From a virus (Duplodnaviria > Heunggongvirae > Uroviricota > Caudoviricetes), in the IMG/VR virus record IMGVR_UViG_2917403263_000001: DNA of 50,015 nucleotides; one strand, given 5' to 3'. Positions 29,750 through 48,462 of the stretch are shown one piece after another; position 1 is the first letter of the stretch, and every line of letters begins with the position of its first letter. The position numbers were made by a program, and so were the translations under genes. The notes below the pieces were generated by a model. That model saw nothing but the letters and a program-made list of their open reading frames with translations, was not told where the DNA came from and did no database searches.

Positions 29750-29824
<75 letters not shown>

Positions 29825-29827
29825 ATA

Positions 29828-29903
<76 letters not shown>

Positions 29904-31068: not shown

Positions 31069-31664
31069 GCAAACTCCAGCAGCTGTGCAGTCACATTTTC
31101 GACTTGTTCCGGAGAGGAAAATTTACGGAACAGAATCCAGTTCCACAGCACATTCAGTACAGATTTATAAACCTGCTGAAACTCGGTTTCGTCCATATTT
31201 GCAAACGCGATGGATTTCGCCCGACGCCCGCGGCTACCGTCCGGATAAAAATGCTCAGTGTAAAATCCGGCCTGAATGGTTACCCATTCACGGAAGGCGT
31301 CAAATGACTTGAGTAATGCCGTATCCTGGGTTCTGCGTGTCGCAACTGTATTCAGATATTGCTCTGCGGCTTCGCTCAGGGCTGGCGTATGTTCCCTGCC
31401 TACCGAGTCACACAGGTAATCAACGAAACCTGACACCAGTGTTCGTTCGCGAGGCGTGATCGCCCCACCGACCGGAGTCCAGTAATCGAATCCGAGTTGC
31501 AGGAGTTTGAAAAAACGCTTGTGGAATGCGTAGTTACGAACACGCTTAAAGTCAGCGTGTATCCACTCGCCTATTTTTATTTGATGCAGAAAATCGCAAC
31601 TCTCCGGCGTCGCCGGGAGAAGTAAACCAGAAGAAGTTTGTTTGACCAGTTGTATATGTGCCAT
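31065..31664 (-). CDS. DUF1367-family nin-region protein
   Basis: 199 aa; 4-nt overlap with the ybcO-like gene; pattern ...FHKRFFKLLQLGFDYW... Confidence 0.65.
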   Translation of the reverse strand: MAHIQLVKQTSSGLLLPATPESCDFLHQIKIGEWIHADFKRVRNYAFHKRFFKLLQLGFDYWTPVGGAITPRERTLVSGFVDYLCDSVGREHTPALSEAAEQYLNTVATRRTQDTALLKSFDAFREWVTIQAGFYTEHFYPDGSRGRRAKSIAFANMDETEFQQVYKSVLNVLWNWILFRKFSSPEQVENVTAQLLEFA

Positions 31665-31730
31665 CGGTTTTCTCCGGTGGCACGGTGTTACTCAGCAGGG
31701 GGTCAACCCTGTGCTGAATTGTAGATGAAT

Positions 31731-31991
31731 TCACTCAGTCTCAAAAGCAAAAAATCCAGCCTTAAGTCCTATCTCTTTCAAAGCCTGTAATGATGTGACA
31801 AATTCATCTTCACGTAAAATAAAACCGTCCACCATAAGTCCATCCACAAAATAAATTAACACAGCACCGTTCTTCCTTTGCTGGGATTGTAAACATTTAA
31901 TGCGGCAGTGACTGACAATAGTTCCATTCTCAACGCGCACAGCATAGAGGCCATTTTCACTAAACAATTCATGCAATTCTTCGATTTTCAT
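31731..31991 (-). CDS. Hypothetical 86-aa protein (AT-rich; part of the accessory island)
   Basis: ATG after GGAAGGA; no recognisable motif. Confidence 0.5.
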   Translation of the reverse strand: MKIEELHELFSENGLYAVRVENGTIVSHCRIKCLQSQQRKNGAVLIYFVDGLMVDGFILREDEFVTSLQALKEIGLKAGFFAFETE

Positions 31992-32128
31992 CTTCAGAAT
32001 CCTTCCAGATAAATAGCTCTCCCCTTTTCAGGGTCCATCCATCTTCTCCCTGCGCGCTACTCAAAACGGATGAATTCTAATTAATCTTTATTTCGAAGCA
32101 ATCGCAAACGATAAAGACAAAAATAAAA

Positions 32129-32155
32129 ACAAATACGACAAATACGACAAATACA
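32129..32155. repeat. 9-bp tandem repeat ACAAATACG x3
   Basis: acaaatacg acaaatacg acaaataca, read directly. Confidence 0.8.
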
Positions 32156-32239
32156 ATAATATCGAAAATTAACTAACCATTCGGACAACAAGGCAATATA
32201 ATTTCAGCTAAAATTATTAATCCCTTATTCATGAAAAAC

Positions 32240-32260
32240 AAAACCCGCCGAAGCGGGTTA
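32240..32260 (-). terminator. Intrinsic terminator after the HTH-peptidase gene; identical 21-mer to 34075..34095
   Basis: Minus strand reads TAACCCGC-TTCG-GCGGGTTTT. Confidence 0.75.
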
Positions 32261-32263
32261 TGC

Positions 32264-33385
32264 CTAGTGAATTTTGCCTCTAAGAGTTCGGTAAGATTGT
32301 AGTGAAACAACATCACCACTTCCTGGCAGTTCATGAACCGCAGGAAGATCATCTCCAACTAACTCATAAAAAATGTCCACTTCTATATCCATTTCATCAG
32401 CTATACGCTGTGGGTCGTATCCTAACTCTTCAAATAAAAACGATAAAGCCCGACGGAATAACTCAGGACGCTCATGAGGGATTAGATAATCTTCTTTTTC
32501 ATCAATAGCTTCCCCTTTCCGTTTCAACCCCATAAATGCAGTTCTGTACTGCTCATCAGTCAAAAGTCCTAATTGATGAGCCCTGTAAACAATGGCAGCC
32601 TTACTTACTTTCCATGTCAACTTAAATTGGCTTAGTCCCTGCCAATTTATCCTCCCCCCCACAGGTCTTGGAAAATATTTCGCCATCGACGTTCTGGGAA
32701 GCAACAGAGCAGAGGCAAAACGGTTTGCCTGGGATTCAGTTAATCTATCACCAGTAGAAATTCCTTCATGAAGAATCAAATGGGCAACCTCATGAGCAAT
32801 ATCAAAGCGTTGCCTACAAGGTGAATTTTTAGCTGTATTTCGAACAATAAAAGGCCTTCGTAGAGGAACAGACAGTGCATCTACTTCATCCGAAACGGAG
32901 TCAAATGAAGTAACAAACGCCCCAAGTTTCTCGGCCAGGCGAGTCATATTTTCAATTGGGCCAAAGCCTAAGCCCCACTCAATACGACATTTTTCTGCCG
33001 CTCGCTCGATATCTTCTTGTGTATGGACACGAAATTCAGGAAATCGAACAGGTGACAAATTAAGATTATCTTCAAATACATCAATAAAACGACGATAAAA
33101 CTCAGCCTTAGCGAGTGTTGATAGCTTCGTTGACATCCTTGTCGAGGCGCGTTTACGAAAATGTACAATCTCTTCATTAACAGGAGAATGTTCCTGCCCT
33201 TCGAAAAAGGCGGGCTTCACGCGCAAAACCTCGGCTAATTTATTTATAAGCTCTGGGGATGGAGTAGCTGAACCAGACTCCAGTCGCTGTACATACTGGC
33301 GTGTTTTTTCAACCTTCTCAGCAACCTGCTCCAGAGATAGCTCGTGATACAGACGAGCAAGTCTTAAATTAGTACCGTTAAACAC
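32264..33385 (-). CDS. HTH-XRE plus ImmA/IrrE (M78, COG2856) zinc-metallopeptidase fusion protein; RmrA-like antitoxin/sensor candidate
   Basis: 373 aa. N-terminal LRLARLYHELSLEQVAEKVEKTRQYVQRLESG is an XRE-type HTH. HEXXH motif in FDIAHEVAHLILHE, followed by the E..AN.FA pattern typical of ImmA/IrrE. Confidence 0.8.
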   Translation of the reverse strand: MFNGTNLRLARLYHELSLEQVAEKVEKTRQYVQRLESGSATPSPELINKLAEVLRVKPAFFEGQEHSPVNEEIVHFRKRASTRMSTKLSTLAKAEFYRRFIDVFEDNLNLSPVRFPEFRVHTQEDIERAAEKCRIEWGLGFGPIENMTRLAEKLGAFVTSFDSVSDEVDALSVPLRRPFIVRNTAKNSPCRQRFDIAHEVAHLILHEGISTGDRLTESQANRFASALLLPRTSMAKYFPRPVGGRINWQGLSQFKLTWKVSKAAIVYRAHQLGLLTDEQYRTAFMGLKRKGEAIDEKEDYLIPHERPELFRRALSFLFEELGYDPQRIADEMDIEVDIFYELVGDDLPAVHELPGSGDVVSLQSYRTLRGKIH

Positions 33386-33395
33386 ATTTCACCCA

Positions 33396-33989
33396 CTATT
33401 TGCTATTTTGTTTCTTTTCCTTCTCAGTCTTAGACGCACTGATAGGTTCTAGTTCGATAGGTACCGGTGCTGGAGGTACATCATCGACAGAGTTCAGCAT
33501 AACAACACGGTCCGCACCATATGTCCAAGTTGACACGATCTCACCAAACACGTTATAGCCATTAAAAATGACTTTACCACCCTCGCCTTCAAATTCAGGC
33601 TTTTCAACCACAAAGCGATGCATAGTTGGAGTGGTCTCCTCTGACTCAAAGAGTCGATCAGCATCGTTTCTTTTGAAAAAACCGCGTTTCTTGGGATTAT
33701 CTGCGTCATCAGTAAAGAAACGAATAGGGACATTCCCAATTGAAAACGTAAGATCCATGCCAGGATTAAGTAGTCTTAACCAGTCATATGTCTTTCGTAC
33801 GCACATTTGTAGCAACGCCTGCCGCTGACGCCCAAATGTACAACCACCACGAGTGTAATTATCATCATAGGGCGATGACAATAACTCATGAGTAATATCC
33901 TGTATCCTGAGCAACTCCTCAGCTATTATGGTTAAACGATCCTCTGTTAACTCAGGAAAGAACTCCCAAGGGAATGGATGGTTCTGCAT
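33396..33989 (-). CDS. Unknown 197-aa protein, partner of the HTH-peptidase (toxin/effector candidate)
   Basis: ATG at 33989, 9 nt after GGAG (the track ORF starts at an upstream TTG); 10-nt gap to the downstream gene; no recognisable motif. Confidence 0.6.
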   Translation of the reverse strand: MQNHPFPWEFFPELTEDRLTIIAEELLRIQDITHELLSSPYDDNYTRGGCTFGRQRQALLQMCVRKTYDWLRLLNPGMDLTFSIGNVPIRFFTDDADNPKKRGFFKRNDADRLFESEETTPTMHRFVVEKPEFEGEGGKVIFNGYNVFGEIVSTWTYGADRVVMLNSVDDVPPAPVPIELEPISASKTEKEKKQNSK

Positions 33990-34024
33990 AGACACATCTC
34001 CGTCTAATCCGTGCAAAAAACGAC

Positions 34025-34071
34025 TTTTGTCAACCAAGATATTGGTGCATATTCATAATTTTGTCAACCAA
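34025..34071 (-). promoter_or_regulatory. Cassette promoter TTGACA-N17-CAATAT flanked by two 13-bp direct repeats TTGGTTGACAAAA (operator candidates)
   Basis: On the minus strand: -35 at 34062-34067, -10 at 34039-34044; repeats at 34059-34071 (over the -35) and 34025-34037 (over the predicted start site). Confidence 0.5.
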
Positions 34072-34074
34072 TAA

Positions 34075-34095
34075 AAAACCCGCCGAAGCGGGTTA
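34075..34095 (-). terminator. Intrinsic terminator after hokD; identical 21-mer to 32240..32260
   Basis: Minus strand reads TAACCCGC-TTCG-GCGGGTTTTTT. Confidence 0.75.
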
Positions 34096-34159
34096 AGCGC
34101 GGGTGCGTTGAGGATGCCTGACACATCAGAGGTGGCGGGGGTTTACCCCGCCTGGTCTC

Positions 34160-34315
34160 TTACTCCTCAGGTTCGTAAGCTGTGAAGACAGCGACCTCCG
34201 TCTGGCCGGTTCGGATTCGTACCTCGCAGAGGTCTTTCCTCGTTACCAGTGCCGTCACTATGACGGTTAAACAGATGACGATCAGGGCGATTAACATCGC
34301 CTTTTGCTGCTTCAT
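34160..34315 (-). CDS. hokD: Hok/Gef-family type I toxin (HokD/RelF-like)
   Basis: 51 aa; MKQQKAMLIALIVICLTVIVTALVTRKDLCEVRIRTGQTEVAVFTAYEPEE matches my recollection of HokD; a structured hok-type leader lies upstream. Confidence 0.85.
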   Translation of the reverse strand: MKQQKAMLIALIVICLTVIVTALVTRKDLCEVRIRTGQTEVAVFTAYEPEE

Positions 34316-34582
34316 AGCCTGCTTCTCCTTGACCTTTCGGTCCGTAAGAGGCAATCTATATGTGACGAGCATATAGGGGCCTCACTTCGATTTATAGTCG
34401 GGTGGGGCTTTTCTCTATCTGCCTTTGGTAGCATGCCCGAGGCAGATAGCCTCAAGCACCCGCAGCAATTCTACTTAACTATCTTTTTCCCGCAAATCGT
34501 TTTTATCCCCAGCGGCAAATCGAATACACCATCAGCGCCACCGCCATTGCAATTCCTACCGTTGTGAATGCTTCAGGCCAAC

Positions 34583-35017
34583 TCATTGATTCACCTCCTG
34601 CGGCGGTTCTGGTAGCGGCATCCAGTGGGTTACATTGCGGCTCTGTGTTTCGAAGAACTCCTCACCATTGCGGACAACATCAAAAAACTCACTGTCTCGA
34701 TATTGCGCATAAAGAACGAATGCGCCATCACATAAAATAATTACGTGCTGACCATCATCTGGCATTCGCTCACTACAGCTTATCCAAGCATCCGGAGCTA
34801 CCGGGTAGTTGCCCAATAGCTCGTTCAACTTCACCTTAATCTCCACATTTCTCAGCTTTAGCACTATTGGTAGGTCTGACTTTCCGGTTAATGCTAATGC
34901 GAGATTTTCTGGAGTAATGAGAGCAGTTATTGTTTTCCCCATTGCCAGACGAATAATCATTCGTATCTCTCGATCGTCACATGCTCCCGGTCGAACAATT
35001 GATATTTGTCCATTCAT
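34583..35017 (-). CDS. DUF551-domain protein
   Basis: 144 aa from MNGQISIV...; C-terminal WISCSERMPDDG...THWMPLPEPP; TGATATG junction with the upstream gene. Confidence 0.7.
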   Translation of the reverse strand: MNGQISIVRPGACDDREIRMIIRLAMGKTITALITPENLALALTGKSDLPIVLKLRNVEIKVKLNELLGNYPVAPDAWISCSERMPDDGQHVIILCDGAFVLYAQYRDSEFFDVVRNGEEFFETQSRNVTHWMPLPEPPQEVNQ

Positions 35018-35018
35018 A

Positions 35019-35537
35019 TCAATCTCCTTTTCCATGAAACAGGTGCTCACGACTGGATTTCCAGAATATCCATGCCAGATCAACATTCGGGTCCTGGTAA
35101 TTCATCCCTTCGTTGGCACGAAGCAATAATGTTTCATGGTTTTTATCACCCGCATGAAACCTGACAAGTGCTTCGAACTGTTCGCGACCATCATCTGGCA
35201 TTCGCTCACTACAGCTTATCCAACCATCCGGAGTTACCGAAATTGGCGGCGCGGCATATAGCTTACGGGTCTGAACACCTGCCCCCTGACATTTCTCTTC
35301 CTCAACAAATCCTTCGTAAACGCATTCTCCGCAATCTTCCCATTCTCCCCATTCATCATATTCTGCATCCCACTGGCGATACTGATATGCCACTGGCTCT
35401 GCTTCCAACGATGCCAGCGCAATACGAAACACATTGGCAAGCAGGCTGTTTGAAGATTGGTTATCGTGCGCCGCATCGCTCAGAAAGCCAGTGATGAATG
35501 ATTTAATCTCTGCGCTTTCTCTGGTAATAGTTGCCAT
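35019..35537 (-). CDS. DUF551-domain protein with an LASLEAEP linker
   Basis: 172 aa from MATITRESAEI...; WISCSERMPDDG motif; TGATATG junction. Confidence 0.7.
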   Translation of the reverse strand: MATITRESAEIKSFITGFLSDAAHDNQSSNSLLANVFRIALASLEAEPVAYQYRQWDAEYDEWGEWEDCGECVYEGFVEEEKCQGAGVQTRKLYAAPPISVTPDGWISCSERMPDDGREQFEALVRFHAGDKNHETLLLRANEGMNYQDPNVDLAWIFWKSSREHLFHGKGD

Positions 35538-35538
35538 A

Positions 35539-35757
35539 TCAGTTTTCCTTATACGGATTAATTTTATTGTGCAGTGTGTTGAACGAGGCCCATACCACGT
35601 CGTTATACAATTCAATAACTGGCTCAATTATTTTCCCGATTCCCCATACCAGAATTAACGGGGATATCGGTATCATCAACACGATAAACAGAATGAGAAA
35701 CAGGAATTCTGTTGTTCGACTTCTTCGCGGATAATTTTTCCTGAATAGTGTAGGCAT
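35539..35757 (-). CDS. Small membrane protein
   Basis: 72 aa with one TM segment (FLFLILFIVLMIPISPLILVWGIG); tightly packed. Confidence 0.5.
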   Translation of the reverse strand: MPTLFRKNYPRRSRTTEFLFLILFIVLMIPISPLILVWGIGKIIEPVIELYNDVVWASFNTLHNKINPYKEN

Positions 35758-48086: not shown

Positions 48087-48281
48087 ATGCGGTATGAAAA
48101 AGTCAAACCATGCCCTTTTTGTGGTTGTCCATCAGTAACGGTGAAAGCCATTTCAGGATATTACCGCGCGAAGTGTAACGGATGCGAATCCCGAACCGGC
48201 TATGGTGGAAGTGAAAAAGAAGCACTCGAACGATGGAATAAACGAACCACTGGAAATAATAATGGAGGTGTTCATGTATAA
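48087..48281 (+). CDS. ralR: RalR / Lar restriction-alleviation protein (type I toxin DNase)
   Basis: MRYEKVKPCPFCGCPSVTVKAISGYYRAKCNGCESRTGYGGSEKEALERWNKRT... matches my recollection of Rac RalR. Confidence 0.8.
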   Translation: MRYEKVKPCPFCGCPSVTVKAISGYYRAKCNGCESRTGYGGSEKEALERWNKRTTGNNNGGVHV

Positions 48282-48462
48282 AATTACCGCCACTATTGAA
48301 AAGGAAGGTGGCACTCCTACTAACTGGACAAGGTACTCAAAAACAAAATTAACCAAATCAGAATGCGAAAAAATGCTCTCAGGTAAAAAAGAAGCAGGCG
48401 TTTCCAGAGAGCAGAAAGTAAAACTGATAAATTTTAATTGCGAGAAAATTCAGTCCTCGTGA
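48274..48462 (+). CDS. ydaC: YdaC (DUF1187)
   Basis: 62 aa from MYKITATIEKEGGTPTNW...; ATG 5 nt after GGAGG; Rac synteny. Confidence 0.6.
   Translation: MYKITATIEKEGGTPTNWTRYSKTKLTKSECEKMLSGKKEAGVSREQKVKLINFNCEKIQSS

Follow-up and report, generated by a model that had tools for sequence, protein, structure and literature searches.

Between the hok/sok locus and the rem gene of a Caudoviricetes genome in the IMG/VR collection (record IMGVR_UViG_2917403263_000001) lie two adjacent genes, rmrT and rmrA, which raise the question whether such a pair regulates the prophage, maintains it or defends its host. We analyzed the complete stretch of 50,015 nucleotides, here called the window, which is a Rac-like lambdoid prophage of E. 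coli. A sequence-only reading of the same DNA, made without database searches, had proposed a toxin–antitoxin or defence unit of the RosmerTA type. Our analysis makes it very likely that positions 32242–34094 are a self-contained RosmerTA (RmrT/RmrA) toxin–antitoxin cassette, placed as a moron between hok/sok and rem, and that it is the same module as that of E. coli E101 described by Rousset et al. The cassette is hence already known, i.e., a near-identical copy has been published from E. coli E101. New here are the conservation of the gene pair, a tandem operator-like site, an invariant HExxH motif, a hairpin at both cassette ends and weak hints on RmrT action.

All ORFs of the cassette lie on the minus strand (Table 1), and 10 nt separate the rmrT stop codon from the GTG start of rmrA, as read from the sequence. 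RefSeq annotates the same coding sequence boundaries for both genes in other E. coli genomes. Profiles of the PADLOC collection matched both proteins over practically their full length: the RmrT model PDLC03929 found the 197-residue protein with an E value of 9.5e-93 (positions 1–197 of 198), and the RmrA model PDLC03943 found the 373-residue protein with 4.3e-201 (positions 1–368 of 370). Thirteen further PADLOC RmrA profiles also matched RmrA. Pfam assigned HTH_3, a helix-turn-helix (HTH) domain, to RmrA residues 7–61 (1.5e-12) and Peptidase_M78 to residues 151–269 (8.4e-17), both above the gathering cut-offs. HEVAH at residues 198–202 lies inside this M78/ImmA zinc-peptidase domain, and the C-terminal region carries no assigned role. 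RmrT matched neither Pfam nor NCBIfam in a single-sequence search; in PHROGs it belongs to phrog_5786, a family of unknown function. These results bear out what had been read from the letters, i.e., the three ORFs and their strand, the short gap, the HTH and M78 domains of the 373-residue protein, the 197-residue protein without recognizable motif, and the toxin-first, same-strand operon architecture of published RosmerTA systems. As far as sequence can tell, every RosmerTA feature that we tested is present in the cassette.

RmrA of the window is residue-for-residue identical to WP_000481765.1, the translation of the gene annotated under this accession in E. coli UMNF18. Rousset et al. (bioRxiv 10.1101/2020.05.25.114553; Nat Microbiol 2021) traced the essentiality of clpP in E. 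coli E101 and TA054 to a prophage toxin–antitoxin module consisting of the domain-less toxin E101_02645 (WP_001179380.1) and the antidote E101_02644 (WP_000481765.1). Suppressors of this phenotype were mostly prophage excisions or carried the toxin mutation T46S, and repression of the toxin rescued the clpP knock-down that is otherwise lethal in E101. When the module was moved to K-12, clpP became essential there as well, unless the toxin carried T46S. The same authors reported 33% and 42% identity of the E101 toxin and antidote with Vmi480 and Vmi470 of Vibrio mimicus, respectively.

The toxin of the window fits this module. Two exchanges, D17E and K139R, separate it from WP_001179381.1, which is encoded beside rmrA in UMNF18, and the E. 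coli RmrT alleles of its 90% identity cluster are 1–3 residues away from it. Thr46 is present in the motif DDNYT46R and is conserved in at least 90% of close relatives (alignment of 53 relatives). The E101 toxin has the same length, falls into the same 90% cluster and has Thr46, while it may differ from the window protein by up to a few residues; both modules reside on a prophage. We conclude that window RmrT is a member of the Vmi480/E101_02645 toxin family, where the link to Vmi480 itself rests on the statement of Rousset et al. The suggestion that the upstream protein may be a new effector family is not supported: it already has a PADLOC profile and a PHROGs family, its partner is identical to a published antidote, and the E101 toxin is published and 33% identical to the validated Vmi480.

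Table 1. Positions of the rmrTA cassette, its control elements and the adjoining rem gene in the window
Feature	Position	Strand	Description
rmrT	33396-33989	minus	197 aa from ATG; TTG-extended form reaches 34037
rmrA	32264-33385	minus	373 aa, GTG start
rem	31731-31991	minus	86 aa
Upstream terminator hairpin AACCCGCTTCGGCGGGTT	34077-34094	minus	terminator scan; hok/sok terminator, left cassette boundary
Downstream intrinsic terminator, hairpin AACCCGCTTCGGCGGGTT and T-run	32242-32259	minus	terminator scan; 3' of rmrA, right cassette boundary
Candidate sigma-70 promoter of rmrTA	34039-34067	minus	-35 TTGACA (34067-34062), 17-nt spacer, -10 CAATAT (34044-34039); read by eye
Operator-like site O1 GTTGACAAAATTATGAATATGCAC	34045-34068	minus	overlaps -35 and spacer
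Operator-like site O2 GTTGACAAAAGTCGTTTTTTGCAC	34011-34034	minus	34 nt downstream of O1, in 5' leader; no -10 after it

The two genes are found together well beyond E. coli. A pattern scan that covered a single genome of every species yielded 80 loci from Gamma- and Betaproteobacteria, to which we added three plasmid loci. An RmrA homologue followed rmrT directly and on the same strand wherever the locus extended far enough (81 of 81), and HExxH was invariant in 78 of 78 RmrA orthologues. Judged from these orthologues, the peptidase motif of RmrA is under strict selection.

An HTH domain combined with an M78 peptidase also brings to mind an induction switch of the ImmR/ImmA type, in which RmrA would be a prophage repressor or anti-repressor and the 197-residue protein an accessory regulator. 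The two domains are indeed those of ImmA/ImmR, IrrE/DdrO and CapP/CapH; moreover, PADLOC returned weak capP (2.8e-17) and capH (5e-10) matches for the window cassette, and the PHROGs family of RmrA, phrog_2439, is labelled 'transcriptional regulator'. However, RmrA unites HTH and M78 in a single chain, whereas repressor and protease are separate in ImmR/ImmA, DdrO/IrrE and CapH/CapP. Immunity functions of the prophage, namely an HTH_3 repressor, YdaT and SieB by Pfam, are encoded in a region of their own at 40–42 kb, far from the cassette, and otherwise similar prophages lack the cassette, with the hok region leading to rem. Relatives also occur on plasmids and in Tn7 cargo without a prophage, and the upstream protein acts as a toxin in E101 and Vibrio. 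Such a switch, which the sequence-only reading had itself put forward as the competing account, thus appears not to apply to this prophage, and we regard it as extremely improbable. CapH/CapP membership was rejected, too, as the matches were at domain level only; no CBASS genes were found near the cassette.

As a RosmerTA unit, the cassette is rare and behaves as a mobile insertion. Of 5426 complete E. coli genomes, 23 contain positions 32240–34095, each copy being chromosomal and at least 99% identical, and several of the carriers are enterotoxigenic E. coli (ETEC). In the carrier genomes inspected, the genes after the cassette are a small hypothetical one and DUF968, as opposed to rem and DUF1367 in the window, and homology of the window to the carriers ends at 32234, just past the terminator. 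The cassette hence sits in at least two prophage backbones, as is expected of a moron. In Escherichia phage PhiR42_1 the cassette is missing: a 38-aa ORF lies between hok and rem, and the homology of this phage to the window comprises 34074–34329 and 31658–32064. Further relatives of rmrTA lie in a Salmonella phage-plasmid, between the replication endonuclease and portal genes, and in an Acinetobacter Tn7-like cargo, adjoining an anti-phage DUF499 gene. A tblastn search of RmrT against 50,697 phage records gave a single weak match, in a Salmonella genome record; the RmrT family is essentially absent from the sequenced free phages in this set.

The 86-aa ORF downstream had been counted as part of the island. 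It is Rem, being so named in E. coli B088 and in PhiR42_1 and matching phrog_340. Because rem adjoins the hok region in prophages without the cassette, the ORF belongs to the prophage backbone. An Hfq-like assignment of this ORF was dismissed, with E values of 0.003–0.02 far below the cut-offs. The island is AT-enriched as had been noted, although only moderately so: its GC content is 43.1%, compared with 48.1% for the window and 52% for hok/sok. A 61-aa ORF at 32173–32358 and other overlapping small ORFs were discarded as by-products of ORF listing.

A toxin–antitoxin cassette of this kind might serve the prophage alone, i.e., as a pure addiction or stabilization module that keeps it in the cell by post-segregational killing and excludes no other phages. 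The prevalence of prophage excisions among the clpP suppressors of E101 ties toxicity to the prophage, the cassette adjoins hok/sok as another stabilization-type system, and defence by this subtype rests on analogy with other RosmerTA systems. On the other hand, two of these other systems do protect against phages, and relatives of the cassette sit in recognized defence hotspots, namely P2-like cargo and the Tn7 cargo beside the DUF499 gene. Also, the window prophage carries SieB and thereby invests in exclusion functions. We hold a purely addictive role to be possible yet improbable; addiction and defence are not mutually exclusive.

The control region of rmrTA carries two operator-like sites in tandem (Table 1). 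The pattern GTTGACAA-N10-16-GCAC has only two matches in the 50-kb window, compared with 0.06 expected, and both copies have N12. A tandem TTGAC(A/G)-N14-18-GCA pair with 33–34 nt spacing was found at 71 of 82 orthologous loci; 3090 control windows taken from these loci had none. The sites are kept although the toxins at these loci are only 30–60% identical. Orthologous loci show the same layout of the first site, i.e., a -35 element, 17–18 nt and a hexamer xAxxAT. After its GCAC, site 1 is followed by this -10-like hexamer (CAATAT in the window, CAACAT, CAAAAT or GATTAT elsewhere), whereas site 2 has none. Because the hexamer follows site 1 only, we take site 1 to combine promoter and operator, and site 2 to be a leader operator. 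The HTH domain of RmrA presumably binds both of these putative operators.

At many Betaproteobacterial rmrTA loci, we observed that the second operator-like site ends 3–4 nt before the rmrT start (…GTGCACAAAATG), without a visible Shine-Dalgarno sequence. Toxin translation may there depend on an unusual leader, or may be occluded when the site is bound.

A promoter and a terminator of its own had been ascribed to the island. The terminator was returned by the scan, downstream of rmrA; a candidate promoter was read by eye. The hairpins at the two boundaries are copies of AACCCGCTTCGGCGGGTT and form a direct repeat, 1835 nt apart. With flanks, the identity of the 18-nt hairpins extends to 24 nt (AAAACCCGCCGAAGCGGGTTA, plus strand), and cassette-free prophages have a single copy after hok. 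The duplicated hairpin may be a recombination site by which the moron moves between backbones, or the footprint of such movement.

What RmrT does in the cell was approached from its family and its predicted fold. A profile search of 1.84 billion representative sequences found 413 RmrT relatives at E ≤ 1e-3, nearly all of them stand-alone proteins of about 200 aa. The alignment of 53 relatives, with proteins of about 197–208 aa, shows the conserved motifs DDNYTR, FGRQ, RFFxDD, PxK and WRFVVE. Profiles of the relatives matched no Pfam family and no solved structure; the best profile match in the PDB was synaptotagmin with E = 0.096, which we took as chance. The viral fold library BFVD gave no meaningful match for RmrT. 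An AlphaFold2 model built with the 53 relatives was fairly confident (pLDDT 82, pTM 0.73) and shows two long helices (residues 16–36 and 44–64) that precede a sheet of six strands; the C-terminal tail is disordered. From this model, RmrT is predicted to be a soluble cytoplasmic α/β protein. A membrane toxin like Kita RmrT-D5 was rejected, given the soluble α/β model and, by inspection, the lack of any hydrophobic segment of membrane-spanning length.

A first, weak hint on RmrT action is a restriction-endonuclease-like fold, the top Foldseek match of the model in the PDB being ThaI (E = 0.055, probability 0.82); RmrT might thus be a nuclease of the PD-(D/E)xK type that degrades DNA or RNA once released. 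The catalytic signature expected on strands 2 and 3 is, however, not conserved in the family: among 84 divergent members, D79 at the expected 'PD' position is kept in only 39, and strand 3 has P88-x-R90 in place of (D/E)-x-K. The polar residues that are kept best in the divergent alignment are D42, R54, R90 and R125. Together with the profile searches, which gave neither a Pfam family nor a solved structure, this renders a nuclease quite doubtful.

A second hint on RmrT action comes from the loop between strands 3 and 4 (approximately residues 95–140), where many distant members have strings like QLSLF, QLDLF, QLNLAF or QLSLPL. The pattern Q-hydrophobic-x-hydrophobic-(x)-F/L occurs in this loop in 53 of 264 unique members (about 20%), whereas shuffled sequences gave 5.6 on average and at most 13; it must be considered that related sequences are not independent. 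Its pentapeptide form was found 16 times in the loop and never elsewhere, and a Betaproteobacterial branch has YQMDFLEF at the same place. The bacterial sliding-clamp-binding consensus, reportedly worked out by Dalrymple and colleagues in 2001, reads QL[SD]LF or QLxLxL. RmrT might accordingly be a replisome poison that binds the β sliding clamp (DnaN) through this loop and is removed by ClpXP, comparable to the toxins of SocAB and RipAB. A parallel is offered by Streptococcus pneumoniae RipAB (Spr1630/Spr1629), whose Rosmer toxin RipA binds to the pocket of DnaN and renders clpX indispensable, as the E101 toxin does for clpP. But the window protein itself has only ADRLF in the loop and its close relatives VDQLF, i.e., only the L-F end of the motif is kept. 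The relaxed hexapeptide pattern also matched outside the loop in 40 sequences and is hence not specific. Moreover, only one of PADLOC's RmrT profiles matched window RmrT.

We therefore regard it as rather unlikely that RmrT of the Vmi480/E101 type is a clamp- or replisome-directed poison that docks on the DnaN pocket and is continuously removed by the RmrA peptidase together with ClpXP. If it were so, RosmerTA systems with unrelated toxins, such as E. coli RmrT and pneumococcal RipA, would share the logic of a protease-guarded toxin, and the toxin would be triggered when ClpXP or RmrA capacity is lost in an infected cell, instead of by breakdown of the antitoxin.

Returning to the RosmerTA cassette as a whole, we propose the following working. 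The genes rmrT and rmrA would be co-transcribed from the promoter right after the hok terminator, with transcription ending at the cassette's own terminator. By binding of its HTH domain to the two tandem 24-bp sites, one overlapping the promoter and one in the leader, RmrA would repress its own operon, as the conservation of these sites suggests. RmrT would be a soluble cytoplasmic toxin that RmrA neutralizes, as was shown for Vmi480/Vmi470 and is supported genetically in E101. RmrA alone would be insufficient for this; from the experiments in E101 and the transfer to K-12, ClpP, probably as ClpXP, would also be needed to keep RmrT harmless. RmrA, via its conserved HExxH peptidase, and ClpXP may thus jointly inactivate or remove the toxin. 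When an infecting phage disturbs this control, freed RmrT would stop the cell, i.e., would cause abortive infection. This last step, and phage defence by this RmrT subtype in general, is suggested by analogy with the two protective RosmerTA systems of E. coli OLC-716 and Gordonia phage Kita.

Several points weigh against the RosmerTA assignment or against parts of this scheme. The generic promoter scan did not call the candidate rmrTA promoter, and promoter-like sites were no more frequent than in shuffled sequences. The identity of window RmrT with WP_001179380.1 rests on the identical partner, the common 90% cluster with alleles 1–3 residues apart, and Thr46, and not on a direct sequence comparison. 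In the literature searched, there is no phage-defence experiment for this RmrT subtype, and the verified OLC-716 system has an unrelated toxin and an RmrA that is only 31% identical. Binding of RmrA to the operators, cleavage by its peptidase and RmrT being a ClpXP substrate are all steps that we infer. Finally, in E. coli ETEC4090 the annotation splits rmrA into two fragments of 245 and 118 aa, while the adjoining rmrT is intact. In this genome, the cassette match is shorter than the query by one base, and by residue position the break lies near a run of seven G (approximately window positions 32650–32657). The split is either an assembly error at this homopolymer or a natural frameshift tolerated by the cell, in which case full-length RmrA would not be strictly required.

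In the E. coli O6:H16 isolate 2011EL-1370-2, rmrA is probably split likewise, judged by match annotation and length.

The prophage around the cassette carries further toxin–antitoxin elements. Rfam placed sok at 34313–34461 and RalA at 48280–48458 of the window, the latter as a full-length match on the minus strand with 213 bits (gathering score 170). RalA is the antitoxin of the type I toxin–antitoxin system RalR of the Rac prophage. The prophage thus has at least three such modules (hok/sok, rmrTA and the RalA match), in addition to YdaT and SieB. Pfam identified DUF551 (twice), Hok, DUF1367, YbcO and a Q-like antiterminator among the genes around the cassette. The two DUF551 ORFs (34583–35086 and 35019–35627, minus strand) lie just upstream of hok; they are adjacent, overlap and share DGWISCSERMPDDG, as would a tandem duplication or a frameshifted fusion. 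The spacer from the cassette terminator to rem (31992–32241) is non-coding, has 33% GC and contains short tandem repeats (tgtcgtatt tgtcgtatt, T-rich runs); it gave no Rfam family at the gathering threshold. About 170 nt of it (32065–32233) match neither PhiR42_1 nor the cassette-carrying E. coli genomes. Genes for tRNA-Gly(TCC) and tRNA-Thr(TGT) lie at 29750–29903 (minus strand), between the Q-like antiterminator and the lysis region. A related prophage of E. coli 504239 has the same tRNA placement plus an extra tRNA-Ile.

A defence-type cassette was hence called correctly from raw sequence, yet this is no discovery, as PADLOC or DefenseFinder label the cassette RosmerTA and the same proteins are already in the literature as a ClpP-dependent toxin–antitoxin module. 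Its defence spectrum, the target of its toxin and the inverted role of ClpP are questions within a family already under study, for which the conserved tandem operator and the clamp-binding-like loop offer concrete experimental handles. Rare as it is, the cassette could affect clpP and clpX genetics as well as phage susceptibility in the lineages that carry it, several of them enterotoxigenic.

Among the closest known systems is Vmi480/Vmi470 of the Vibrio mimicus genomic island MGIVmi1. Luo et al. 2015 (PMC4671572) found that expression of Vmi480 (198 aa) on its own is lethal to E. coli and that co-expression of Vmi470 rescues the cells; vmi470 could not be deleted by itself, and Vmi470 has 362 aa with an N-terminal HTH and a C-terminal zinc-peptidase domain. 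As in the window cassette, the toxin gene comes first in the operon, the toxin (about 198 aa) has no known domains, and the antitoxin combines an HTH with a zinc peptidase. The intergenic gap is 5 nt in Vibrio as compared with 10 nt in the window. Also, Vmi480/Vmi470 is a distant homologue, its homology being given by the figures of Rousset et al., and is located on a mobilizable genomic island, not on a prophage.

The name RosmerTA was introduced by Millman et al. 2022, who pointed to Luo 2015 and Rousset 2021 for previously described cases of this gene configuration. They showed that RosmerTA of E. coli OLC-716 protects against phage and could not obtain an rmrA deletion mutant, consistent with RmrA being an antitoxin. 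The carriers UMNF18, TW10598, TW11681 and V. mimicus VM573 were not found in their supplementary tables. The OLC-716 system has the same architecture as the window cassette, and some 310 residues of its RmrA are homologous to window RmrA (31% identity, E = 2e-38). The toxins differ, i.e., that of OLC-716 has 239 aa, compared with 197 aa in the window, and shows no significant similarity to it; defence has been shown for the OLC-716 system. RosmerTA of Gordonia phage Kita also protects against phage, and its RmrT depolarizes the membrane. The E101 toxin is counted among the RmrT proteins in a 2025 preprint on Pectobacteriaceae, in which essentiality of clpX was confined to RosmerTA-carrying strains.

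RipB is, like RmrA, a Rosmer-family antitoxin that joins an HTH with an ImmA-like part. SocA, a protease adaptor, is not known to have an HTH or M78 domain. The NCBIfam profile spr1629 scored window RmrA with 174 bits, under its cut-off of 335. In the discussion of the RipAB paper, Caulobacter SocB is described as targeting the same DnaN pocket as RipA. RipA and SocB differ from window RmrT in that this target is known and in that they have no established sequence relation to it. Proteolysis of the antitoxin is what sets the toxin free in classical type II systems. In the E101-type module, by contrast, ClpP restrains the toxin, and this it has in common with RipAB and SocAB, where the toxin is likewise held in check by ClpX or ClpP and not released by it.

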